A DNA stretch of 32,000 bases from Acaryochloris marina S15 (lineage in GTDB: Bacteria > Cyanobacteriota > Cyanobacteriia > Thermosynechococcales > Thermosynechococcaceae), in NCBI RefSeq assembly GCF_018336915.1, contig NZ_CP064927.1, forward strand, positions 60,001 to 92,000, given 5' to 3'. Numbering within the stretch: position 1 is the stretch's first letter; every line of letters starts with the position of its first letter. The notes beneath the pieces are model-generated. The model was not told the origin of the DNA. It did no database searches and saw nothing but the letters and a program-made list of their open reading frames with translations. Below, piece after piece: positions 10,850 to 23,130 of the stretch. The position numbers and the translations under genes were made by a program.

Positions 10850-11182
10850 CTAACCCCCTGGCACCAATTTACTACTGGCTAAACGATTTAGACTGATACC
10901 TTGTTCTGCCGCCTGAATTGCCAATTGCCGATGTTGCTCAGGGGGAATTCTCACCATGAATTTACCGCTGTACTGCTTCTTAGATAGAGGCATGGGGATG
11001 GGTTCATTTTGTGACTCTAAATCATCAATACAATTTTTGACCAATTCCACAATGCCAGTGAAAGCAGATTGCTGATCTTCATCTAGCCAGCTCAAGCTTG
11101 GAAATTCAGCGCACAAGCCCACAAATTCCTCATCTTCTTCAGACCAGATCACCCGGTAGGTATAGAACTTTGCTTCCATCAC
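10850..11182 (-). CDS. hicB: HicB-family antitoxin
   Basis: YTYRVIWSEEDEEFVGLCAEFPSLSWLDEDQQSAFTGIVELV (HicB RNase-H-like fold) plus a C-terminal RHH-like IPPEQHRQLAIQAAEQGISLNRLASSKL. The start overlaps the hicA stop by 4 nt (ATGA). Confidence 0.85.
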   Translation of the reverse strand: MMEAKFYTYRVIWSEEDEEFVGLCAEFPSLSWLDEDQQSAFTGIVELVKNCIDDLESQNEPIPMPLSKKQYSGKFMVRIPPEQHRQLAIQAAEQGISLNRLASSKLVPGG

Positions 11183-11424
11183 ATTGACTCCAGCTTTTGA
11201 ATCGCAGCTAACACTTGTTTCACTTGATAGGGTTTGCCCATTCCCTTCTTAGATTGAACATTAACGAAGGGGTCACCTTGCCAGGGCGTCTTGTAGACTC
11301 GATGGCTTCCAGAAGTCTGCCGTGCTTCACCGAAATAGTGACTGCAAACCTTGCACAAATCGGAGAACTTAATCCCAGCAGGGTTATTTCCCATTTTGGC
11401 AACAATTTTGTCGACACTCGCCAT
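11179..11424 (-). CDS. hicA: HicA-family mRNA-interferase toxin
   Basis: 81 aa with IKFSDLCKVCSHYFGEARQTSGSHRVYKTPWQGDPFVNVQSKKGMGKPYQVKQVLAAI, including the GSH catalytic-histidine motif of HicA/YcfA. Confidence 0.85.
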   Translation of the reverse strand: MASVDKIVAKMGNNPAGIKFSDLCKVCSHYFGEARQTSGSHRVYKTPWQGDPFVNVQSKKGMGKPYQVKQVLAAIQKLESM

Positions 11425-12407: not shown

Positions 12408-13082
12408 TCAATAATTACAGCTAACTTGGCCATCTGGAATAAGACCTATTTGGATCGACTGACCATAAAAATCTCCTTTCTGCTCAATCTTAAATCCACC
12501 CAATAGCAGCCCAAGCCAAACCGCTACCAAAGGTAATCGAACTCCCCTCACCAGCTCTACAAACGACACCGCCCCCTTAGCCCCTTCCAAATACTCACAA
12601 ATCGCGCCCACCCAGGCCCCAACATCCTCGACATGGCTTACTTTCAGGGCAACCGCTTCCCCAGACTCCAGCTCATCGACAAACTCTAGAACCGCATCCT
12701 TACTAACTTCCCCCACAACAGACTCAACAGGAACCCCCGTGAACCCCTGACGACTCTTCCGTGACTTCGGCTGACGACACAGATCCGAGACATCCAGAAA
12801 CATAGTCTGCTGAATCATCCCAGCTAAGAAATCCTCATCCAACACAGGACCTTCTGAGTTGTATCTGTCTTCCCAACCCTGGATCATTAGCTCTGCCCGC
12901 TGAAAACAGACCTCAGCCATATCCTTGATCGCATCCCCAGCCACTCGGAGCTGTTCGTGGGGAGAACGACCCTGTAGATGCTGCTCCAGTGAGGCACACA
13001 TCAGGGAAATATCAGCTTGCTCAGGTTCGTCTAAAGCAGAGGCCAAAGCACTGGCAAAATCTAGCTCAAGCTGAGTGAACAT
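12408..13082 (-). CDS. hypothetical protein (acidic, hydrophobic C-terminal segment)
   Basis: Long ORF with no recognisable motif. I prefer ATG 13082 (MFTQLELDF) because the longest form (13166) overlaps the upstream gene by 100 nt. The segment LPLVAVWLGLLLGGF could be a membrane helix. Confidence 0.55.
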   Translation of the reverse strand: MFTQLELDFASALASALDEPEQADISLMCASLEQHLQGRSPHEQLRVAGDAIKDMAEVCFQRAELMIQGWEDRYNSEGPVLDEDFLAGMIQQTMFLDVSDLCRQPKSRKSRQGFTGVPVESVVGEVSKDAVLEFVDELESGEAVALKVSHVEDVGAWVGAICEYLEGAKGAVSFVELVRGVRLPLVAVWLGLLLGGFKIEQKGDFYGQSIQIGLIPDGQVSCNY

Positions 13083-13593
13083 AGCGCTTATCCTTGAGTG
13101 GACATTCCGCAATTTCGCACTCAGAAGGTTCCATGCGAATCGGGGGTTCAAACTCCGTGATGCCATACCGATCGCCTAGGACCTTCAGTACCTCCTTCAA
13201 ATACCGATTCACTTGGGTATTGGTCATTCCCATACAGTGGACAGCTTCAATTTCCGCTAACTTATCACTCCCCTGCCAGACAGTGATAGCCAGGGCATGG
13301 AGGTGAGCATCCTTGGGCTTTTCTTTGTAGAGGTAAAGCAACGCCACGGGTGGAGCTTGGACGGGAATCGAGAAGGTTTCCGTGGTTTTTGCTGGCGCTG
13401 CTTTTGCTTTCTGGTCAGCGTATTCTCCTCGGCGCTTGGCATTGCTTTCTTTGCGGTGGCGGTAGTGATTTCGTTTGCGATCGCAGGCATTATCCGTCCA
13501 GCACCCATCCCCTTGCGGCCCATGAACCCGCTTTGCTTCCATCCGGGAATAGTCGATGCATTGGAGGCAGATGGGGTTTGGAGGTAGTGGCAT
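13066..13593 (-). CDS. hypothetical Cys-rich / basic protein
   Basis: 175-aa ORF starting at ATG 13593. It has an N-terminal CLQC...C...C cluster followed by a Lys/Arg-rich stretch. It is the first gene of a minus-strand three-gene string (13593->11709). No family was recognised. Confidence 0.55.
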   Translation of the reverse strand: MPLPPNPICLQCIDYSRMEAKRVHGPQGDGCWTDNACDRKRNHYRHRKESNAKRRGEYADQKAKAAPAKTTETFSIPVQAPPVALLYLYKEKPKDAHLHALAITVWQGSDKLAEIEAVHCMGMTNTQVNRYLKEVLKVLGDRYGITEFEPPIRMEPSECEIAECPLKDKRYVHSA

Positions 13594-13906: not shown

Positions 13907-16900
13907 ATGACGAGTCCGAGCCCAGAACAGCAAACCATTCTATTCCTTGCCAGCAACCCAGATGGATTGCGTCAACTCGGACGAGAATTACGTGACATTA
14001 AAAACGGGTTACGCAGATCTGAGCATCGAGATCAGTTCACTCTATGTCCCTGCCTGGATGTGCGTACTATAGATATTCAACGGGCATTACTGGATGAAAC
14101 TCCTCAGATTATTCACTTTGCTGGCAGTGGCAAAGGAGAAGCAGGACTCGTCTTTGAAGATCAAGCGGGCAATCCCAAACTCGTCACGGGTGCAGCCCTA
14201 GCAGGGCTCTTTGAATTGTTTGCTGAGTACATCCACTGCGTCATTCTGAATGGATGCTATTCCCAGGTGCAAGCTCAAGCCATCGCTCAACATATTGATT
14301 ATGTAGTAGGCATGCAGCAGGCCATTAGCAACGAAGCGGCCCTGGCCTTTGCCGTTGGGTTCTACGATGCCTTGGGTGCAGGCCGAGACATTGAATTTGC
14401 CTTTAAGTTGGGATGCAGTGCCATTCAAATCGAGGGCTTACCCGAATCTCTCACCCCAGTGTTGGTCCAAAAATCTAGCCTTCAATCCGCACCCCTCCAA
14501 CCCTTACCCGAACAGCAGACCCATGAAAAACTCTGGAAAGTGCCAGAGTTACCCCCTCACTTTTTACCTCGTCCTCAGACCCTAAAGGCCCTAAGAGAGA
14601 AGGTCCTTACGGATCTAGCCCAGCCTGTAGTCATGACCGGGCAACGCATCGGTGTTCAGGGTATGGGGGGCATTGGCAAGTCGGTGTTGGCCACAGCCCT
14701 AGCTCGTGACCCTCAAGTTCAATCGGCATTCCCTGACGGTATTTATTGGCTAACCGTGGGGATAGAACCCAACCTACTGGCTCAGCAAATCGATCTAGCA
14801 GCAGCCCTCTGTGGTGAACGCCAGGTATTTGAAGATATCAATGAAGGAAAAACCCGACTCCAAACCCTATGGCAAGGACGCCAAAGTCTATTGATTCTAG
14901 ATGATGTCTGGCGCATCGCGGATGCAGAAGTCTTCAATGTCCTGGGACATCACAGTACCTTGGTAGTGACGACCCGTGACTCAGAATTAATCACAGGATT
15001 AGGGGCCACTGACTTTTCCCTTTCGGTACTCCATGAGGATCAGGCGCTGGAGTTATTAGCCGCCTGGGTGGGCGTCCCCATCTCAGATCTACCCTCCCAA
15101 GCCCAGACAGTAGCAAGAGAATGTGGCAACTTGCCCTTAGCCCTGGCCCAATGTGGCGCAATGGTGCGAGATTTGACCCCTTGGCCCCATGTTCTCAGCG
15201 CCTTACAAGATTCAGATCTTGAATTTATCCAAAAACAGTTTAGTCATTATTCCTACCCCGATGTCTTCAAAGCCCTGCATGTCAGTGCAACGGTCTTAGC
15301 AGCAACCAACCCCATCGCTGCCGAGCGCTATCAAGAACTGGCAGTATTTCCAGCCGATGAATTGATTCCTGAAGCAGTTATTGTTCGCCTATGGCAATAT
15401 ACCGGCGCATTAAAGGAGCGAGATGCGGGCAAAATCCTGACCACCTTATCGAGGAAAGGCATGCTGCGGCTAGAGGGGGACTATCCCCAGCGGCAAGTCA
15501 GCCTCCATGACTTACAGCAGGATTATTTACAAGCCCAGCAAGCCGACCAGAAGGTATTGCATCAGCAACTTCTGGAGGCTTATCACCAGAGCTGTTCAGA
15601 GGGATGGCATTGTGGACCGAAGGACGGGTATTTCTTTGAGCATTTGGCCCATCACCTCCAGCAGGCAGAACGCACCGATGAGTTATGGCAATTACTCTGG
15701 GACTATCGTTGGATTCACCACAAATTGGGCGTCACCGATATCAATGCCCTGCTATTGGACTATGAAACCTTACCCAAGGACAAAGACCTCAACATTGTCC
15801 ACAGTGGGTTGCGGTTATCTAGCCATGTCTTAAATCAGTATCCTGAGCAGCTTCCCAGTCAGCTCTATGGGCGTTTGATGAGTCAAGACTTACCCCATGT
15901 GACCGCTTTGACTCAATCTTTAGCTCAGGGACCGGGAGAGTGCTGGATAAGGTGTCTATTCCCCCATCTCAACCAAGCGGGGGGAGCATTAGTGCGCACC
16001 CTCACCGGACATACTTCCCATGTCACTGGCGTCAGCATCAGCCCCGATGGCCAAACCGTAGTCTCCGCGTCTGGGGACAATACCCTGAAGGTGTGGGACC
16101 TGGAGACGGGCCAGGAGCAGCGCACCCTCACCGGACATACTTCCCATGTCACTGGCGTCAGCATCAGCCCCGATGGCCAAACCGTAGTCTCCGCGTCTAG
16201 TGACCATACCCTGAAGGTGTGGGACCTGGAGACGGGCCAGGAGCAGCGCACCCTCACCGGACATACTAACTTTGTCAATGGCGTCAGCATCAGCCCCGAT
16301 GGCCAAACCGTAGTCTCCGCGTCTAGTGACCATACCCTGAAGGTGTGGGACCTGGAGACGGGCCAGGAGCAGCGCACCCTCACCGGACATACTTTCGCTG
16401 TCGAGGGCGTGAGCATCAGCCCCGATGGCCAAACCCTTGTCTCCGCGTCTAGGGACAAGACCCTGAAGGTGTGGGACCTGGAGACGGGCCAGGAGCAGCG
16501 CACCCTCACCGGACATACTGCCTCTGTCTTTGGCGTCAGCATCAGCCCCGATGGCCAAACCCTTGTCTCCGCGTCTAGTGACCATACCCTGAAGGTGTGG
16601 AACCTGGAGACAGGTCAGGAGCAGTGCACCCTCACCGGACATACTTCCTTTGTCAATGGCGTCAGCATCAGCCCCGATGGCCAAACCCTTGTCTCCGCGT
16701 CTTGGGACAAGACCCTGAAGGTGTGGGACCTGGAGACGGGCCAGGAGCGGCGCACCCTCACTGGACATACTGACTTTGTCGAGGGCGTGAGCATCAGCCC
16801 CGATGGCCAAACCCTTGTCTCCGCGTCTTGGGACAAGACCCTGAAGGTGTGGGACCTGGAGACGGGCCAGGAGCAGCGCACCCTCACCGGACATACTTCC

Positions 16901-17149
16901 ACTGTCAATGGCGTGAGCATCAGCCCCGATGGCCAAACCGTAGTCTCCGCGTCTAATGACAATACCCTGAAGGTGTGGGACCTGGAGATGGGCATGGAAG
17001 TGATGAGCTTCACGGGAGAAGGCGCGTTTCGATGTTGTGAGATTGCCCTAGATGGTCGCACCGTCATTGCTGGAGATTTTGGGGGGCAGCTTTACTTTCT
17101 GCAGCTAGAAGGCCCCAGCTTTTCAGACGGCGGGGAGGTCATCTCATGA
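13907..17149 (+). CDS. STAND NTPase: CHAT-like (caspase-fold) N-domain + NB-ARC + WD40 propeller
   Basis: aa 8-185 have a caspase/CHAT-like layout (ILFLASNP ... IIHFAGSGKG ... CVILNGCYS ... AFAVGFYDALGAG). NB-ARC motifs are GVQGMGGIGKSVLA (P-loop), LLILDDVW, LVVTTRD, CGNLPLAL and SLHDLQQDY. These are followed by 8 near-identical and 1 degenerate WD40 units (GHT..V.GVSISPDGQT.VSAS.D.TLKVWDLETGQE). Confidence 0.9.
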   Translation: MTSPSPEQQTILFLASNPDGLRQLGRELRDIKNGLRRSEHRDQFTLCPCLDVRTIDIQRALLDETPQIIHFAGSGKGEAGLVFEDQAGNPKLVTGAALAGLFELFAEYIHCVILNGCYSQVQAQAIAQHIDYVVGMQQAISNEAALAFAVGFYDALGAGRDIEFAFKLGCSAIQIEGLPESLTPVLVQKSSLQSAPLQPLPEQQTHEKLWKVPELPPHFLPRPQTLKALREKVLTDLAQPVVMTGQRIGVQGMGGIGKSVLATALARDPQVQSAFPDGIYWLTVGIEPNLLAQQIDLAAALCGERQVFEDINEGKTRLQTLWQGRQSLLILDDVWRIADAEVFNVLGHHSTLVVTTRDSELITGLGATDFSLSVLHEDQALELLAAWVGVPISDLPSQAQTVARECGNLPLALAQCGAMVRDLTPWPHVLSALQDSDLEFIQKQFSHYSYPDVFKALHVSATVLAATNPIAAERYQELAVFPADELIPEAVIVRLWQYTGALKERDAGKILTTLSRKGMLRLEGDYPQRQVSLHDLQQDYLQAQQADQKVLHQQLLEAYHQSCSEGWHCGPKDGYFFEHLAHHLQQAERTDELWQLLWDYRWIHHKLGVTDINALLLDYETLPKDKDLNIVHSGLRLSSHVLNQYPEQLPSQLYGRLMSQDLPHVTALTQSLAQGPGECWIRCLFPHLNQAGGALVRTLTGHTSHVTGVSISPDGQTVVSASGDNTLKVWDLETGQEQRTLTGHTSHVTGVSISPDGQTVVSASSDHTLKVWDLETGQEQRTLTGHTNFVNGVSISPDGQTVVSASSDHTLKVWDLETGQEQRTLTGHTFAVEGVSISPDGQTLVSASRDKTLKVWDLETGQEQRTLTGHTASVFGVSISPDGQTLVSASSDHTLKVWNLETGQEQCTLTGHTSFVNGVSISPDGQTLVSASWDKTLKVWDLETGQERRTLTGHTDFVEGVSISPDGQTLVSASWDKTLKVWDLETGQEQRTLTGHTSTVNGVSISPDGQTVVSASNDNTLKVWDLEMGMEVMSFTGEGAFRCCEIALDGRTVIAGDFGGQLYFLQLEGPSFSDGGEVIS
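15995..17002 (+). repeat. 8 x 126-bp near-identical tandem coding repeat (WD40 units); a degenerate 9th unit follows to ~17110
   Basis: CGCACCCTCACCGGACATACT recurs at 15995, 16121, 16247, 16373, 16499, 16625, 16751 and 16877, an exact 126-bp period. Confidence 0.95.
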
Positions 17150-17285
17150 CTTAAATCGTTCTAATATCCCTCCAATTCCTGCCTTAACGTTCGGGGTGTT
17201 CTTTCACAACCGAAGGCTATCGATGTCGCATTTCAATACTTGAACGTTCCACTATCTTTTGCCCGAATTTATCTGCCCTACCCTC

Positions 17286-18383
17286 ATGACTGCCCAAACC
17301 ATTCTCTTTCTCGCTGCAAATCCTAAAGATACTCAGCCTCTTCGATTGGATCAGGAGTTAAGGGATATTGGTGAGGGTTTACAGCGGGCTCAACATCGAG
17401 ATGAGTTTAAGCTTGAACAGCGACTGGCGGTTCGCCCCCATGATATTCAGCGGGCCATGCTAGATCTGAATCCCCAGATCGTTCATTTCTCAGGCCATGG
17501 GAATGGGGATGAGGGCTTGGCCTTTGAGGATGTCAGTGGCAACACCCAGTTGGTCAGTGGTGAGGCGATTGCAGACCTGTTTAACCTGTTTGCCGATCAA
17601 CTGCGCTGCGTAGTCCTCAATGGCTGCTATACCGAGGTGCAAGCAAAGGCCATCTCAGAACATATTCCCTATGTGATCGGGATGAAACGGGCGATTGGGG
17701 ATAAAGCGGCGATCTCCTTTGCCGTGGGATTCTATGATGCCCTGGGGTCAGGACGAGATGTGGAGTTTGCCTTCAAGTTGGGCTGCACCGCCATTCGTAT
17801 GGAAGGCATTGAAGAACATCTCACTCCCGTTCTGATTAAAAAGCCCATTACAGAGGAAACTAAGGATCAGGATCAACCCAAGGCTCAAGCTCGTCCAACA
17901 CCTACGCCTTCTCCCATGACTCCAAACGCCGATGCCCCCTTAGAGGTCTTTATTTCCTATTCCCATAAAGACGATGATTTGCGAGAAGAGTTAGACATCC
18001 ATCTCTCCAATCTGAAACGACAGGGGAAAATTGCTGCTTGGCATGATCGGGCGATTGAAGCAGGGGAAGAATGGGAAACCCAAATCAAAGGCCATCTGGA
18101 GTCCGCTCAAATCATTCTGCTACTGGTCAGCCCACCCTTTATGGCCTCTAACTATTGCTATGACATTGAGATGCAACGAGCGATAGACCGCCATAACGAA
18201 GGCACAGCCCGAGTCATCCCTATTATTCTGCGTCCCTGTGACTGGAAAGGGTCACCCTTCAGTAAGCTTCAGGTACTCCCTAAAGATGCCAAGCCCGTGA
18301 CGAAATGGGCTGATCGCGATGAGGCATTTTTGGATGTCGTCAACGGGATACGGAGGGCGGTAGAGACCCCACTAAAAAAGTAG
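17286..18383 (+). CDS. CHAT-like (caspase-fold) N-domain + TIR domain protein
   Basis: ATG 17286 (MTAQTILFLAANPKD) parallels the start of the upstream protein; the track ORF starts at TTG 17259. The N-domain has QIVHFSGHGNG ... CVVLNGCYT. A P/T-rich linker follows. The TIR has LEVFISYSHKDDDLREEL...AAWHDRAIEAGEEW...IILLLVSPPFMASNYCYDIEMQRA. The stop TAG at 18381 comes directly after A_AAA_AAG. Confidence 0.85.
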   Translation: MTAQTILFLAANPKDTQPLRLDQELRDIGEGLQRAQHRDEFKLEQRLAVRPHDIQRAMLDLNPQIVHFSGHGNGDEGLAFEDVSGNTQLVSGEAIADLFNLFADQLRCVVLNGCYTEVQAKAISEHIPYVIGMKRAIGDKAAISFAVGFYDALGSGRDVEFAFKLGCTAIRMEGIEEHLTPVLIKKPITEETKDQDQPKAQARPTPTPSPMTPNADAPLEVFISYSHKDDDLREELDIHLSNLKRQGKIAAWHDRAIEAGEEWETQIKGHLESAQIILLLVSPPFMASNYCYDIEMQRAIDRHNEGTARVIPIILRPCDWKGSPFSKLQVLPKDAKPVTKWADRDEAFLDVVNGIRRAVETPLKK

Positions 18384-18420
18384 ACAACTCTTCGTCAGGG
18401 CACAGTCCACCAACGGAGAG
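18374..18420 (+). promoter_or_regulatory. candidate -1 frameshift site (A_AAA_AAG + 0-frame TAG + downstream hairpin), or the scar of a 1-nt homopolymer deletion
   Basis: The 0-frame codons are CTA AAA AAG TAG. The heptamer at 18374-18380 is in the correct phase. The -1 frame is open from 18323 and reads ...KKVDNSSSG...NLPRSGVVKFVGRDQ into the NB-ARC ORF. CTCTTCG (18388-18394) can pair with CGGAGAG (18414-18420), 7 nt after the heptamer. Confidence 0.4.
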
Positions 18421-18520
18421 TCATCAGGGCCAGGGACCAGAAGCCTCGTCATCTTCCCAGGCAAGTCCCCCTCATAACCTCCCTCGCAGCGGTGTCGTTA
18501 AATTTGTCGGTCGTGACCAA

Positions 18521-20674
18521 ATGCTGCAGGACTTGCACCAGCTCCTCCAAAAGAACAATCCAGTAGCCCTCACTGCATTAGCAGGCATGGGTGGGATCGG
18601 AAAGACTGAACTTGCCCTGCAATATGCCATCTCCCAGCTCGATCAGGGTCAGTACCCTGGAGGACTTTGCTGGCTGCGAGTGAAAGGCCAGGAGCTAGCC
18701 GCCCAAATTATCGAATTTGCCCAGACCAAGTTAGTCCTGACCCTCCCGGATAGACTCGATGAAGACCAACAGGTGAGTTATATCTGGGGGCAATGGCCCA
18801 TCGGAAAGGTGCTGATTATTTTTGATGATGTGATGGACCTTAAGACTGTCCAACCGTACTTACCGCCATCAGATCCACGGTATAAAGTACTGATCACCAC
18901 CCGACAGGATTTAGGTCTATCCGTTCATTCCCTTTCCATTAAAGAACTGAGCGATACGAGTGCCTTATCCCTACTGAGAACCTTAGTTGGAGCCGACCGC
19001 ATTGATGCTCAGCTCGACGATGCCCAAGCCTTATGTGAATGGGTGGGTAAATTGCCCTTGGGACTAGAGTTAGTGGGACGGTATCTAGCCAGAAAGCCAG
19101 ACTGGTCCCTCCAAAAGCTGATCAAGCGACTTGACTCCAAGCGACTGGAAGCCAAAGCCCTGACGACTCCAGCATCAGGAATGACCGCACAGTTTGGGGT
19201 CGCTGCTGCGTTGGAATTAAGCTGGGTAGAGCTGAATGAGGCAGAGCAGGAACTGGCTTGCTTTTTGGGGATGTTTGCGGTTGCTCCTATTCCTTGGACT
19301 TTGGTTGAAGGATGTCTATCCGAACAGGATAAGGATGACTTAGAAGACATCAGAGATGAAGGTTTGAAAGATAGGAACCTACTCAAACGAATAGAACAGA
19401 GTACCTACCAACTCCATCAAATTGTTCAGGAGTTCTTTCGGATTAAGTTGAATGAGGATTCCGAACAGGGGAAATCCCTCAAAGCCGATTATTGCAGAGG
19501 AATGGTTGCAGTTGCTCAGGGTATTGATGACAGTCCAACGCTTGATGTGATTGCCCAGATGAGTGCCAGCATTCCCCATCTAGAGGAACTGATCAACCAG
19601 TGGATTGACCACCTCGGTGATGATCAATTGATTTGGCCCTATGTCGGTATTGGTCGATTTTATGAAGGGCAAGGGAACTATGCATTGGCTTTACCTTGGA
19701 GACAAAAATGCCTGGAACAGACTCAACAAAGATTGGGCACCGAACACCCCGATGTCGCTCTTAGCCTCAATAACCTGGCATTACTCTACGACAACCAAGG
19801 ACGGTATGAGGAGGCAGAACCCCTCTATACACAAGCTTTACAGATGACACAGAAGCTCTTGGGCAACGAACACCTCTCTGTCGCTCTTAGCCTCAATAAC
19901 CTGGCAGGACTCTACGAGAACCAAGGACGGTATGAGGAGGCAGAACCCCTCTATACACAAGCCCTACAAATGAAAAAGAAGCTCTTGGGCAATGAACACC
20001 TCTCTGTCGCTCTTAGCCTCAATAACCTGGCAGGACTCTACGAGAACCAAGGACGGTATGAGGAGGCAGAACCCCTCTATACACAAGCCCTACAAATGAA
20101 AAAGAAGCTCTTGGGCAATGAACACCCCTCTGTCGCAACTAGCCTCAATAACCTGGCAGCACTCTACAAAAACCAAGGACGGTATGAGGAGGCAGAACCC
20201 CTCTATAAACAAGCCCTACAGATGAGACAGAAGCTCTTGGGCAATGAACACCCCGATGTCGCTGGTAGCCTCAATAACCTGGCAGCACTCTACGACAACC
20301 AAGGACGGTATGAGGAGGCAGAACCCCTCTATACACAAGCCTTACAAATGACACAGAAGCTATTGGGCAATGAACACCCCTATGTCGCTCTTAGCCTCAA
20401 TAACCTGGCAGCACTCTACAAAAACCAAGGACGGTATGAGGAGGCAGAACCCCTCTATACACAAGCCTTACAAATGACACAGAAGCTATTGGGCAATGAA
20501 CACCCCTATGTCGCTCTTAGCCTCAATAACCTGGCATTACTCTACAAAAACCAAGGACGGTATGAGGAGGCCAAATCTTATTTAAAGCAAGCACTAAAGA
20601 TAGTAGAGGTCGTCTTGGGTCCAGAGCATCCTTCTACTCGGACCATGCAAAATAACTTAGAGTCCATCCCCTAG
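18521..20674 (+). CDS. STAND NTPase: NB-ARC + TPR array (conserved coding sequence extends upstream to at least 18380 without a start codon)
   Basis: LAGMGGIGKTELA (P-loop), VLIIFDDV, VLITTRQ and VGKLPLGLELVGRYL, then 7 near-identical 42-aa TPR units (LGNEHP.VA.SLNNLA.LY.NQGRYEEAEPLYTQALQM.QKL). The first ATG (18521) cuts off the conserved NLPRSGVVKFVGRDQ segment that precedes the P-loop. Confidence 0.85.
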   Translation: MLQDLHQLLQKNNPVALTALAGMGGIGKTELALQYAISQLDQGQYPGGLCWLRVKGQELAAQIIEFAQTKLVLTLPDRLDEDQQVSYIWGQWPIGKVLIIFDDVMDLKTVQPYLPPSDPRYKVLITTRQDLGLSVHSLSIKELSDTSALSLLRTLVGADRIDAQLDDAQALCEWVGKLPLGLELVGRYLARKPDWSLQKLIKRLDSKRLEAKALTTPASGMTAQFGVAAALELSWVELNEAEQELACFLGMFAVAPIPWTLVEGCLSEQDKDDLEDIRDEGLKDRNLLKRIEQSTYQLHQIVQEFFRIKLNEDSEQGKSLKADYCRGMVAVAQGIDDSPTLDVIAQMSASIPHLEELINQWIDHLGDDQLIWPYVGIGRFYEGQGNYALALPWRQKCLEQTQQRLGTEHPDVALSLNNLALLYDNQGRYEEAEPLYTQALQMTQKLLGNEHLSVALSLNNLAGLYENQGRYEEAEPLYTQALQMKKKLLGNEHLSVALSLNNLAGLYENQGRYEEAEPLYTQALQMKKKLLGNEHPSVATSLNNLAALYKNQGRYEEAEPLYKQALQMRQKLLGNEHPDVAGSLNNLAALYDNQGRYEEAEPLYTQALQMTQKLLGNEHPYVALSLNNLAALYKNQGRYEEAEPLYTQALQMTQKLLGNEHPYVALSLNNLALLYKNQGRYEEAKSYLKQALKIVEVVLGPEHPSTRTMQNNLESIP
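19733..20614 (+). repeat. 7 x 126-bp near-identical tandem coding repeat (TPR units)
   Basis: TTGGGCAA(C/T)GAACACC recurs at 19733, 19859, 19985, 20111, 20237, 20363 and 20489. Units 19859-19984 and 19985-20110 differ at a single nucleotide. Confidence 0.95.
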
Positions 20675-20812: not shown

Positions 20813-21754
20813 TAGCACTACGAAACTGTGTTAGTACTATAAATAGAAGCTATCACTGCAGAAGTATGCCAGCCCCCTATAGTTATGACCTTCGCTGCAA
20901 AGCGATTGCTGCGGTCAAGAATGGAGAACGGAAAGTCGACGTATGCCGGATGTTAAACATCAGTCGGAACACCTTGCACTTATGGATAGCGCGAGAGGAA
21001 TCGACCGGTGATTGTCAGGCCATTACCCACTACCAGCAAGGAGCTCGCCACAAAATTACAGATTGGGAGCGCTTTCGTGAATTTGCTCAAGAGCATGGGG
21101 GAAAGACTCAGGCCCAAATGGCTAAATTATGGGGTGATAATGTCACCCAGCAAAATATCAGTGATGCCTTGAAGAAATTAGGCTTGAGTCGAAAAAAAAG
21201 ACCTATGGCTATCGAGAACGGGATGAAACGCAACGCCAAGCCTTTATAGAGCGGTTACAGACCAAACATCCTCACCAGATAGTCTATGTGGATGAAGCAG
21301 GTATCGATAATCGAGCGGATTATCCCTATGGATATTGCCCCATTGGTCAACGATTCTATGACCTTAAATCAGGCAAGCGGACAGAGCGAGTCAGTTTCAT
21401 TGCTGCGCTCAAAGAGCGACAGTTATTTGCCCCGATGACTTTCGAAGGGTCTTGCAATCGTTTGTTATTTGAGGCGTGGTTACAGCAGAGTCTCCTGCCC
21501 CAGCTGCACCCTGGCGATATTATCGTGATTGATAATGCCAGTTTTCACCATGGACAAAGTATCGAAGAAATCGTAGCTGAAGCAGGGTGTGAGATTTGGT
21601 ATCTACCGAGCTATTCTCCTGATCTCAACAAAATTGAGCGATGGTGGTTTGTATTCAAAAACTGGATGAAGCAGCGATGGGATGAGTTTGACACTTTTCG
21701 TGATTGTGTAGATGCTGCCTTTAAGGAGTGTACTAACGTATTCCCGTAGTGCTA
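20813..21754 (+). mobile_element. IS630-family insertion sequence (942 bp) with TA target duplication
   Basis: Termini are TAGCACTACG...TTAGTAC (20813-) and the reverse complement TAGCACTACG...TTAGTAC (-21754). Each is flanked by TA (20811-12 and 21755-56). A two-frame transposase lies inside. Confidence 0.8.
20866..21749 (+). CDS. IS630-family transposase, expressed via a -1 frameshift at an A8 run (orfA 20866-21249, orfB frame to 21749)
   Basis: orfA is an HTH (MPAPYSYDLRCKAIAAVKNGE...LNISRNTLHLWI). After CGA AAA AAA A (A-run 21192-21199) the -1 frame reads KTYGYRERDETQRQAFIERLQ...VYVDEAGID...VIDNASFHH...LPSYSPDLNKIERWW, a DDE_3 domain with the D,D,D/E triad. Confidence 0.8.
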
Positions 21755-21790: not shown

Positions 21791-22082
21791 ATGAAAAGAC
21801 GATTTTTTACTTTTTGCATCCTCGACTGATAAGAATCCAAAGGCATACTTAATTGGAGATGCTAAGAAAAATGCCAGACATATAGAATCTAGACAAGGAA
21901 AGAGAGGGAATCAGTTTCGAGCAATTATTGGATATGCAGATCTAGAAAATAAACACCAATATATTCCTGTCGCAACCTATATAACAATATTTGACAACCA
22001 AAAAAATGAAGAAAAACTAAAGGAGCGAGCTAACAAAAAAGGGGTTCACTTATTTGTCGTTAGTTTCTTCCCAGAACGATAA
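21791..22082 (+). pseudogene. small hypothetical gene upstream of the ankyrin gene, lacking an in-frame start
   Basis: A 95-codon open frame at 21795-22082 (KDDFLLFASSTDKNPKAYLIGDAKKNARHIESRQGKRGNQFRAIIGYADLENKHQYIPVATYITIFDN...GVHLFVVSFFPER*) contains no ATG/GTG/TTG. ATG 21791 is one base out of frame across an A4 run. The stop lies 13 nt before the ankyrin ATG. Confidence 0.3.
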
Positions 22083-22095
22083 GCAAATTTTTATT

Positions 22096-23130
22096 ATGTC
22101 AGAAAAGATAAATCCTGAATGGCTTAACTTGAGGAATGCGATTAAAAGTAATCAAATAGATAAATTCACCGCTATATTTTGCAAAAAAAAATGGAGTGAG
22201 CATGATCTAGTACATGCTTTAGTACTCGCCTCAAAATATGAGTCTCTAGAAATACTACTAACACTTATAAAATATGGTGCAGATATAAATCTTACTGTTG
22301 GGGAGGAAACAGCACTAGCTACTGCAGTAGATGAAGGTAATTATGAAATCGCTTCTATTCTTCTGGATGCTGGTGCTAATCCTTCACTTCCAATCAATAG
22401 TGAGGTTCATCCTCCATTATTTATTGCTGCTAACAATGGGGATTTAGACATAGTTAAACTCCTAGTCAATGCTGGTGCAAATGTCAACCAGACTATATGT
22501 GGAGAACCTCCGATTATTAATGCTGCCTTGTCAGGTCATCAAAATATATATAACTTCTTATTACCCATGACACAATCAGAATTATTGGGTGATGCGGAGT
22601 ATTTCTTGCAGAAAGGGATTCGACAGAATTTTAGAGATGAAAATATCAATCCTATAATGGAAAATGCTTATGATGTAGTGCGTAAGGGCAGTATTGGTGA
22701 GGTCAAAAAACTTTTAACTGGAAACATCCCAATTAATGATTTTACTCAATATGGATCAACATTATTAAATAGTGCTGTTATTAGAAGACCAGTAGAGTCT
22801 CGACTACCAGTTACTCTTGCTTTACTTGAATCTGGAGCCGATCCAAATTTAGCTGATGACTATGATGATATGACACCTATTATGCGAACTAGGCAGATTG
22901 AAATTATTTCTACTTTGATAAATTTTGGTGCGGATGTCAATGCAATGACTCATGACAAGACAACTGCTTTAATTGAAGCTTCTAAGTATCGCCATTCCCT
23001 CGCTGTCAAAGTTCTTTTAGAGTCGGGTGCGGACCCGAAGCATAAAGATTCAGCAAATATGAATGCAATGGACTACGCTCTGGAGAATCAGCATTCAGAT
23101 ATCATTCTTTTCTTTAAAGAATCAGCATAG
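22096..23130 (+). CDS. ankyrin-repeat protein
   Basis: Repeated ..AL..A...G..EI...LL..GA(D/N)(I/V/P)N units (e.g. TALATAVDEGNYEIASILLDAGANPSL; PLFIAANNGDLDIVKLLVNAGANVN; TALIEASKYRHSLAVKVLLESGADPKH). ATG 22096 is preferred over TTG 22054 because the upstream frame ends at 22082. GC is markedly low (~35% by eye). Confidence 0.85.
   Translation: MSEKINPEWLNLRNAIKSNQIDKFTAIFCKKKWSEHDLVHALVLASKYESLEILLTLIKYGADINLTVGEETALATAVDEGNYEIASILLDAGANPSLPINSEVHPPLFIAANNGDLDIVKLLVNAGANVNQTICGEPPIINAALSGHQNIYNFLLPMTQSELLGDAEYFLQKGIRQNFRDENINPIMENAYDVVRKGSIGEVKKLLTGNIPINDFTQYGSTLLNSAVIRRPVESRLPVTLALLESGADPNLADDYDDMTPIMRTRQIEIISTLINFGADVNAMTHDKTTALIEASKYRHSLAVKVLLESGADPKHKDSANMNAMDYALENQHSDIILFFKESA

Follow-up and report, generated by a model that had tools for sequence, protein, structure and literature searches.

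In this study we analysed a locus of the cyanobacterium Acaryochloris marina S15 at positions 13907 to 20674 of a 32,000-nucleotide (nt) stretch of contig NZ_CP064927.1, here called the window, to which all coordinates refer unless a plasmid or another locus is named. An open reading frame (ORF) scan of the window gave three ORFs in this locus, all on the + strand. We consider it fairly probable that they encode two NLR-like receptors, one of which (ORF2 together with ORF3) is predicted to make both a short CHAT-TIR protein and a long CHAT-TIR-NB-ARC-TPR protein by programmed -1 frameshifting. An earlier note on this DNA, made without database searches, had described three co-directional ORFs with their domains. 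This description held and all motifs quoted there are present, and the domain architecture given below (lengths in amino acids, aa) is hardly in doubt.

13907-17149, + strand: ORF1, 1080 aa, Apaf-1-like STAND protein with a CHAT N-domain lacking the catalytic His, NB-ARC, APAF-1 helical domain and WD40 propeller
17286-18383, + strand: ORF2, zero-frame product and predicted short CHAT-TIR isoform, 365 aa from ATG 17286
18521-20674, + strand: ORF3, 717 aa from its ATG, NB-ARC and TPR

Comparison with described systems

Apaf-1-like proteins with caspase-like N-domains are known from cyanobacteria, which are said to hold the closest homologues of Apaf-1 (PMC13581612), and Apaf-1-like or NLR-type STAND receptors have been tied to anti-invader and cell-death systems in multicellular cyanobacteria. 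ORF1 is of this known type. It resembles the described proteins in its NB-ARC, APAF-1 helical and WD40 domains, in the caspase fold of its N-domain and in its cyanobacterial host. It differs from them in that it belongs to a clade without the catalytic His and is tied to a downstream CHAT-TIR gene. Their interpretation as direct protease effectors is therefore not applicable to ORF1.

The nearest solved relative of the N-domain is SAVED-CHAT from the Haliangium type III-B CRISPR/CBASS hybrid (PDB 8TL0), a protease activated by oligomerisation (10.1101/2023.06.23.546230), which has the same short CHAT domain and an aligned His/Cys dyad. Its assembly is driven by cyclic tri-adenylate (cA3) acting on the SAVED domain, whereas the presumed driver at our locus is a STAND NTPase with TPR or WD40 repeats, and CHAT is here fused to TIR. 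Type IV Thoeris (10.1101/2024.10.24.620036) likewise combines a ThsB-like TIR with a caspase-family protease in one system, but as separate proteins and with the diffusible N7-cyclic ADP-ribose (N7-cADPR), whereas our locus carries both on one polypeptide attached to a STAND module. Neither a ThsA (SIR2 or Macro/SLOG) nor a separate caspase-like effector domain was present in the scanned flanking ORFs, and we do not assign the locus to Thoeris (types I/II or IV).

The EAD-coupled STAND conflict systems with caspase and variable-effector proteins (Kaur et al. 2020/2021; PMC7159879, PMC8195603) belong to the same gene pool, as relatives of the CHAT-TIR gene carry EAD1 or TRADD-N and pair with EAD1-NB-ARC-TPR genes. 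The EAD principle, a domain common to the effector and the STAND protein, is mirrored by the CHAT N-domains. In contrast to EAD, the common domain is a caspase fold of 185 aa whose catalytic residues are found in one partner while the other is predicted to be dead, and the TPR part would be coupled by recoding and not through an adaptor. No EAD Pfam match was found in ORF1-3, which sets the locus apart from EAD systems proper. PADLOC likewise returned domain-level matches only (chat, ThsB, TPR, HEAT-ARM) and no Avs model, although the general logic is alike.

Two further comparisons concern the proposed pair of products. The TIR-NB-LRR genes N of tobacco and RPS4 of Arabidopsis depend on alternative splicing for truncated isoforms, TIR or TIR-NB, which they require (review PMC4100160). 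A full-length receptor and an effector-only short form from one gene is also what we propose for the locus, by predicted ribosomal frameshifting instead of splicing, and the likeness is an analogy only. Escherichia coli dnaX (PMC3711429, PMC4066793) shows the same heptamer in the same register, a hairpin few nucleotides downstream and two products with a common N-terminus. The shifted product is short in dnaX and would be long at our locus, as in transposases of insertion sequences (IS) and in phage tail chaperones. The zero-frame stop here abuts the heptamer, and there is no conserved upstream stimulator resembling a Shine-Dalgarno sequence.

In the literature searched, frameshifting is not described for defence genes of the TIR, NB-ARC or STAND type, which is not proof of novelty. 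Recoding in such genes is not reported in PMC13581612, PMC7159879, PMC8195603, 10.1101/2024.10.24.620036, PMC3711429 or PMC4066793. In its domain architecture the locus follows a known type; what is new as a variant is the conserved frameshift joint together with the pseudo-caspase partner.

Relation of ORF2 and ORF3

The reading frame of ORF3 is -1 relative to ORF2 and open from 18323, overlapping the 3' end of ORF2. The length of ORF2 is exactly 1098 nt in four of four Acaryochloris plasmid copies, and an alternative start at TTG 17259 would give 374 aa. The features on which the following analysis is based are:

18374-18380, + strand: slippery heptamer A_AAA_AAG in the register of ORF2 (X_XXY_YYZ), abutted by the UAG stop at 18381-18383
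18380-20674, + strand: -1-frame coding region of 764 codons with an S/P-rich linker, NB-ARC and TPR
18387-18421, + strand: putative frameshift stimulator, a stem-loop (ACUCUUCGU...ACGGAGAGU, inner helix of 4 bp) located 6 nt downstream of the heptamer
18476-18520, + strand: pre-P-loop segment NLPRSGVVKFVGRDQ, upstream of the annotated ORF3 ATG (18521)
18527-19156, + strand: NB-ARC of the predicted long isoform, with P-loop GMGGIGKT from 18584 and Walker B LIIFDD from 18812
19640-20620, + strand: TPR sensor array of TPR_12/TPR_10 units with a 42-aa period (Pfam TPR_12, 8 stretches)

Joining the two frames gives a CHAT-TIR-NB-ARC-TPR protein of 1129 aa (365 + 764). Uninterrupted homologues of this architecture (P0001-P0003; 1129, 1125 and 1132 aa) are single ORFs in their contigs and align with 99% coverage of the fusion, the first of them having the same length as the fused product. 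Among the other loci fetched, all TIR-to-NB-ARC junctions (17 of 17) are in frame. One in-frame fusion, P0024, reads the identical nucleotide string AAAAAAGTAGA as KKVD; slipping by -1 therefore leads back to the frame used directly by fused relatives. The frame difference between fused relatives and the window amounts to a 1-nt length change in the two to three variable codons before the A-run.

We then compared the five Acaryochloris copies, that is the window and the copies on pMB04, pMB06, pREB7 and pREB8. Upstream of the ORF3 ATG the -1 frame reads ...SPPHNLPRSGVVKFVGRDQ, a canonical pre-P-loop STAND segment. The segment NLPRSGVVKFVGRDQ is kept in all five copies with synonymous third-position changes and also in the fused P0001-3 and P0011, and in the -1 frame NLPRSGVV-FVGR shows synonymous third-position changes among the five copies. 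Counted from the junction, position 1 of the AAA_16 profile falls on aa 41, position 2 of NB-ARC on aa 46 and the Met on aa 48, so that the ORF3 ATG cuts into its own NB-ARC/AAA_16 domain, which the earlier note had overlooked. Started from its ATG, ORF3 matched NB-ARC at 2e-14 and TPR_12 at 1.9e-137, and the full -1 ORF matched NB-ARC at 1.2e-15. The -1 ORF has the features of a STAND NTPase (GMGGIGKT, LIIFDD and NB-ARC followed by TPR).

The ATG at 18521 of the window is ACG (Thr) in the other four copies, and a search for ATG, GTG and TTG before the P-loop Met found no start codon common to all five. A TTG at +150 occurs in four of the five copies, downstream of the conserved linker and without a Shine-Dalgarno sequence. 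The linker itself contains no indel or stop in any of the five copies. In three of them (window, pREB7, pREB8) the -1 ORF runs without interruption for 722-764 codons, and the ratio of nonsynonymous to synonymous substitution rates (dN/dS) of its NB-ARC part is 0.18-0.26 among intact copies (dS 0.23-0.38). Where a free-standing TIR effector gene and an effector-less TPR sensor gene had been supposed in the earlier note, the comparison points to one CHAT-TIR-NB-ARC-TPR gene with a conserved -1 site.

Some related loci deserve mention beside this junction. On pREB4 (L028, NC_009929, 6071-8779) a 142-aa N-domain gene and a related NB-ARC-TPR gene lie in the same frame with a single TGA between them, followed by the conserved NLPRSGVKEFVGR; this could be stop-codon readthrough or a nonsense mutation. 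Its relative on pREC3 (L029) has its own N-domain and ATG instead. The uninterrupted homologue P0001 (L031, 762-5832) lies tail-to-tail with a gene for Peptidase_C14 (caspase) and TIR, another pairing of caspase and TIR in a locus of the same type.

The putative frameshift signal in Acaryochloris

The 3' end of ORF2 reads CUA AAA AAG UAG and thus holds a dnaX-type heptamer linking to the ORF3 frame, which had also escaped the earlier note. AAAAAAG occurs only once within the three ORFs. Heptamer and stop are identical in the five copies, and the preceding two codons vary (cca cta, cca cca, ctg aca, cta aca). In dnaX the same heptamer is found with a hairpin (PMC3711429), and a heptamer with stop and hairpin is the canonical layout of such sites (PMC3711429, PMC4066793), in which stimulators generally lie 5-8 nt 3' of the slippery sequence (PMC4066793). 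Across the five copies, 95% of the cells of the window hairpin are paired, compared to 34-51% in slid controls. With a conserved heptamer, a hairpin in the RNA and a -1 frame under purifying selection, the junction looks like a frameshift signal and not like damage. From the sequence it is quite probable that expression of ORF3 depends on a return to the -1 frame at the A-run and, given such a return, very probable that the slippage is ribosomal rather than transcriptional.

Other explanations for parts of this signal were rejected. The hairpin was not taken for an intrinsic terminator, as no T-run follows the stem and the scan called no terminator, and an Rfam search of 17000-19000 returned no match. 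The Acaryochloris copies share a Shine-Dalgarno-like GGAGG located 17 nt 5' of the heptamer. We did not count it as a stimulator because its region encodes the conserved IRRAVE and because it is missing in other lineages (L048 has GGCGGG at this place, L038 none). A sequencing error was dismissed since the same A6G is present in five finished plasmids or contigs, in a finished Calothrix plasmid and in two independent assemblies (L120/L121).

At a distance of 3 kb from the ORF2/ORF3 junction the frame changes at an A-run once more, in an IS630-type transposase (20866-21749, + strand) consisting of ORF A (HTH_Tnp_IS630, 20866-21249) and ORF B (DDE_3, 21288-21749). The frame of ORF B is open from 21165, is -1 relative to ORF A and overlaps it at an A8 run (GTCGAAAAAAAAGACC, about 21191-21198). 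This may be either IS-style programmed slippage or a broken copy.

The signal in other lineages

The pattern 'xxA AAA AAG stop' was found at the same post-TIR position in further loci, which brings the heptamer signal to 13 distinct loci (14 assemblies) in at least 6 lineages, at least 5 of them besides Acaryochloris. The -1 frame in these loci encodes different modules:

L048: NB-ARC, APAF-1 WHD and WD40, 1084 aa (NB-ARC 2e-40)
L037, L038, L039 and L120/L121: AAA_16/nSTAND-like NTPase (the last two being independent assemblies with identical sequence)
L105: helical domain and TPR
L034: heptamer at a contig end in a noisy assembly, -1-frame product not assigned
L119, a finished Calothrix sp. 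336/3 plasmid: annotated CHASE2 gene

Hairpins are present 3-6 nt 3' of the heptamer in every other heptamer locus, with sequences unrelated between groups and z-scores of -1.2 to -5.8. Within the AAA_16 subgroup the hairpins could be aligned, and in 7 of 12 stem pairs both partners differ without loss of pairing, compared to 3.1 +/- 1.3 in shuffles (0 of 500 reach the observed value) and 0-2 in slid controls. This compensatory change was seen in the AAA_16 sister subgroup only and not in the window's own subgroup.

To relate the heptamer to the downstream frame we used every gene with TIR as C-terminal domain, unselected for the heptamer. Among these 26 genes, a -1 ORF of at least 168 aa follows 9 of 11 heptamer ends (median 305 aa) and 1 of 15 other ends (median 21 aa). 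This unselected set replaced the statement that all KK* ends use the heptamer, which was circular as computed and to which L122 is an exception. In L122, an EAD1-CHAT-TIR gene, KK* is encoded by G AAG AAG, there is no -1 ORF (23 aa) and no hairpin (-3.7 kcal/mol), and the neighbouring gene has its own ATG; this locus served as a non-slippery negative control. A scan of genome contigs matched TIR relatives and no further recoded junctions.

On balance these data favour a portable joint, in which cyanobacterial CHAT-TIR genes with A_AAA_AAG, stop and hairpin at the TIR end would yield a free effector and an effector-sensor fusion at a set ratio. The modules joined in this way would be NB-ARC-TPR, NB-ARC-WD40, AAA_16 STAND NTPase, TPR and CHASE2, and in the window the free isoform may serve ORF1, too, by way of the pseudo-caspase domain of ORF1.

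As an observation in its own right, L122 (191-2128) has its EAD1-CHAT-TIR gene followed by a 130-aa EAD1-only gene, a clean case of EAD coupling within the same protein family.

Alternative explanations

If the locus consisted of three independent genes, ORF3 would be translated from its own ATG 18521 or the nearby TTG as an effector-less sensor that signals to a separate CHAT-TIR protein by contacts. The ATG is indeed present in the window and in the strain of P0005, RefSeq annotates ORF3 homologues separately with a start at TTG +150, and the family often couples an effector gene to a separate STAND gene in the EAD manner (L122; PMC7159879). We nevertheless regard independent genes as unlikely. 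The ATG is ACG in four of five copies, the TTG is missing in one and neither has a Shine-Dalgarno sequence, while the conserved NLPRSGVV-FVGR coding and the beginnings of the AAA_16/NB-ARC profiles lie upstream of both. Furthermore, ORF2 and ORF3 have no adaptor domain in common, and the conserved heptamer, stop and hairpin would be left unexplained. The conservation of these elements might also be ascribed to other functions, the hairpin acting as an intercistronic processing, stability or translational-coupling element and AAA-AAG being merely a conserved C-terminal Lys-Lys. Many family members do end in ...SLxKK or ...SLxNK, and a GTG lies just 3' of the hairpin in some lineages. However, wherever a -1 ORF exists, Lys-Lys is always AAA-AAG and follows a 4-fold-degenerate codon with A in third position (cta, cca, aca, gca, tca). 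The sole KK* member without a -1 ORF (L122) uses G AAG AAG and has no hairpin, and the window family offers no start codon for coupling, which makes this explanation extremely unlikely.

The 1-nt length change that separates fused relatives from the window, located in the two to three codons before the A-run, would also be expected from a decaying pseudogene, that is an ancestral fused gene with a 1-nt deletion just upstream of the A-run, of which only CHAT-TIR is still made and ORF3 is a relic. Further frameshifts in ORF3 in two of the five Acaryochloris copies, the split ORF1 in one and the lack of an ORF3 coding sequence on pMB04 in PLSDB fit such a history. It is very unlikely in view of the low dN/dS of NB-ARC (0.18-0.26 at dS 0.23-0.38), the 722-764 codons without stops or indels in three lineages and the occurrence of the same site in unrelated lineages, where the -1 ORF behind it is intact and reaches up to 1084 aa. 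The hairpin covariation of the AAA_16 subgroup and the absence of the heptamer exactly where no -1 ORF follows (L122) speak against it as well. The frame could finally be restored without the ribosome, either by RNA polymerase slipping on A6 and adding one A or by A6/A7 phase variation of the DNA. Poly-A tracts support transcriptional and replication slippage (PMC3711429, PMC5009743), and the frames of the neighbouring IS630-type transposase overlap at an A8 run. We judge this decidedly unlikely, as there are only 6 A here and known slippage or phase-variation tracts usually have at least 8 (PMC3711429). A6 is found in all 13 distinct heptamer loci (14 assemblies) without A7 alleles, in each case with a G behind the tract and in precise X_XXY_YYZ register. 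The selected hairpin 3-6 nt downstream is needed by ribosomal frameshifting and not by the other mechanisms.

Ribosomal -1 frameshifting, the explanation that we prefer, also has observations weighing against it. The spacer between heptamer and hairpin is 3-4 nt in some lineages compared to the usual 5-8, and the hairpin of the window family shows two one-sided pair-preserving changes and no double covariation. The linker dN/dS of 0.45 in the -1 frame, compared to 0.65 and 1.58, is a modest difference that is not decisive alone. Possible start codons are a GTG at +18 in three of four AAA_16 loci and a GTG at +11 in Calothrix. As an ATG is present at 18521 in the window and in the P0005 strain, a truncated NB-ARC-TPR protein could initiate independently. 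The -1 ORF is broken in two of the five Acaryochloris copies, both from 'Moss Beach', and the module therefore does decay. A tRNA-Lys(CUU), if present in Acaryochloris, would weaken slippage on AAG. With regard to function, it is homology that suggests a defensive role, and PADLOC, one of the checks named in the earlier note, did recognise domains in the locus and assigned no defence system to it. Lastly, an ORF1-like neighbour is lacking in fused (L030, L031) and recoded (L037, L039, L105) relatives, and this type of gene can therefore do without ORF1.

CHAT and TIR domains of ORF1 and ORF2

The N-domains of ORF1 and ORF2 are paralogous; by eye their identity had been put at 55-60% in the earlier note, and the alignment gives 61% over 183 aa (E 3e-85). 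The domains discussed here are:

13907-14476, + strand: ORF1 N-domain, caspase/CHAT fold, predicted to be catalytically dead
14642-15286, + strand: ORF1 NB-ARC, with P-loop GMGGIGKS from 14660 and Walker B LLILDD from 14888
15974-17104, + strand: ORF1 WD40 beta-propeller sensor of near-identical 42-aa units (Pfam, 8 stretches)
17286-17855, + strand: ORF2 CHAT domain with intact dyad His71 (17496-17498) and Cys114 (17625-17627)
17944-18368, + strand: ORF2 TIR, ThsB-like, with conserved Glu295 at 18168-18170

The PADLOC model 'chat' matched both ORF1 and ORF2, and ORF2 additionally matched Pfam CHAT (1.4e-9). A profile built from 24 N-domains matched SAVED-CHAT 8TL0 in the PDB with E 1.7e-28. 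His71 and Cys114 of ORF2 align with H375 and C422 of SAVED-CHAT, and the 47-residue chain spacing as well as the HF-GHG and LN-C motifs are alike. An AlphaFold2 model of the ORF2 N-domain (predicted local distance difference test, pLDDT, 91.4; predicted template modelling score, pTM, 0.89) retrieved 8TL0 as the best Foldseek match (template modelling score, TM, 0.83), followed by caspase-4/-11/-1/-9, CED-3 and MALT1. By profile and structural model, the shared N-domain is a caspase/CHAT fold with SAVED-CHAT as its nearest relative, in agreement with the fold proposed in the earlier note.

The same note had given both N-domains the His/Cys pattern of caspase-CHAT folds, which we could not maintain for ORF1. 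The dyad of ORF2 is kept in all five cassette copies. Where ORF2 reads HFSGHG, ORF1 reads HFAGSG, a loss of His that had gone unnoticed; the His position is Ser74 (14126-14128) and Cys117 (14255-14257) is retained. Across the five cassette copies this position is Ser or Arg (Arg in pREB7). His and Cys are kept in 81 of 93 homologous N-domains, and the exceptions are essentially the ORF1 clade (P0121-P0127, P0134), which has S, N, R or Q at the His position and retains the Cys. As the ORF1 N-domain has the fold and lacks the His across the clade, we predict it to be a conserved, clade-wide pseudo-protease and not an active protease.

The TIR domain of ORF2 matched Pfam TIR_2 (1.1e-16) and PADLOC ThsB (6.4e-62), and in the alignment its Glu295 falls on the Glu of the TIR motif in Cat1. 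The TIR fold assigned in the earlier note is present and the Glu is conserved, and NAD+ cleavage by this domain is predicted.

ORF1 and its sensor array

ORF1 matched NB-ARC (2.6e-26) and WD40 (2.6e-101) in Pfam, APAF1_C (6.4e-11) and PADLOC 'chat' (7.8e-14). It has the features of a STAND NTPase of the AP-ATPase/NB-ARC clade, namely Walker A GMGGIGKS, Walker B LLILDD, a helical domain and repeats. The order of an N-terminal effector followed by NB-ARC and a WD40 or TPR sensor, the NLR/Apaf-1 logic recognised in the earlier note, was recovered. ORF1 is 100% identical to P0121, an Acaryochloris marina protein encoded on a 210-kb contig.

Both the WD40 (15974-17104) and the TPR array (19640-20620) consist of near-identical 42-aa units, and the WD40 stretch has a GC content of 61%. 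The number of units varies among cassette copies, the length of ORF1 lying between 786 and 1293 aa and that of ORF3 homologues between 653 and 842 aa. Repeats in the WD40 and TPR sensor domains therefore seem to expand and contract rapidly.

Proposed mechanism and gene pairing

From the features described above we infer a course of events in which the slippage and its rate, the ligands, the NADase and protease activities, the recruitment of the short isoform and the role in defence are all predicted. Normal decoding would stop at UAG 18381-18383 and give the 365-aa CHAT-TIR short isoform. A fraction of ribosomes would slip back by one base on A_AAA_AAG (18374-18380), aided by the hairpin at 18387-18421, and continue in the -1 frame to give the 1129-aa CHAT-TIR-NB-ARC-TPR long isoform. 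The TPR array of the long isoform would then bind an invader-derived ligand, and oligomerisation of NB-ARC would gather the N-terminal CHAT-TIR modules. Their proximity would switch on the TIR NADase and the Cys-His protease through CHAT-CHAT contacts, as in SAVED-CHAT filaments. The short isoform would provide extra effector units, recruited to the long isoform by homotypic CHAT/TIR contacts.

The pseudo-CHAT domain of ORF1 could possibly recruit the short isoform as well, which we put forward tentatively and think somewhat doubtful. Comparable recruitment is known from CARD, which recruits caspase-9, and from cFLIP, which pairs with caspase-8. The idea of the earlier note, in which homotypic contacts of the N-domains let both sensors act on a single effector, might survive in this modified form only. 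An ORF1-like gene lies directly upstream of CHAT-TIR in the five Acaryochloris cassettes, in L034 and in L116-118 (58-nt gap in L116-118). The expectation that these genes would be neighbours in related genomes was thus borne out for the Acaryochloris cassettes and two further lineages, and not for the several relatives without an ORF1-like gene listed above. The pairing of ORF1 with ORF2/3 appears to be lineage-restricted and suggests cooperation.

Genomic setting

The locus sits on an Acaryochloris plasmid-type replicon. Exact matching of the proteins of ORF3 and of the Acaryochloris homologues P0005, P0006 and P0016 gave no entry. A PLSDB plasmid search found a cassette made up of a divergent 175-aa gene, ORF1, ORF2 and ORF3, which recurs on pMB04, pMB06, pREB7 and pREB8 with 85-93% nucleotide identity. 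The flanks carry a transposase of the IS630 type, a gene with ankyrin repeats and further genes that are mobile or accessory. The divergent gene is located as follows:

13066-13593, - strand: divergent Cys-rich hypothetical gene, 175 aa, adjoining ORF1 in all four plasmid cassettes

No Pfam family matched its product, and whether it is a member of the system (a regulator?) or part of the plasmid backbone is uncertain. In the pMB06 copy (L025, 1282-5156) ORF1 is split into a 226-aa CHAT-only coding sequence and an NB-ARC-WD40 coding sequence, and ORF3 is frameshifted, too. Decay seems to be under way in both 'Moss Beach' copies of the cassette. The two MBIC11017 copies, on pREB7 and pREB8, and that of the window are intact.

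Further along the window, 22054-23130 (+ strand) encodes an ankyrin-repeat protein of 358 aa (Ank_2 1.1e-36). It lies in a stretch of 35% GC, well below the window average, and is probably of foreign origin. At 10850-11424 (- strand) two small overlapping ORFs of 110 and 81 aa resemble HicB/HicA antitoxin-toxin pairs by eye only.

Significance

Programmed frameshifting is rare in cellular (non-mobile, non-phage) bacterial genes, with dnaX, copA and few others as examples. If our interpretation is true, the joint between ORF2 and ORF3 would be, to our knowledge and in the literature searched, the first recoding signal described in NLR-like/STAND immune genes. It would also explain the ragged, truncated starts of NB-ARC genes in annotations of such loci, which annotation pipelines and defence-system finders currently mis-split. 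The pseudo-enzyme clade of Apaf-1-like proteins bears on the evolution of caspase recruitment to apoptosome-like platforms. One mRNA giving effector-only and effector-sensor protein in a fixed ratio would, if true, add a new regulatory layer to bacterial STAND immunity and represent a prokaryotic parallel to the plant TIR-NB-LRR genes that need truncated isoforms.

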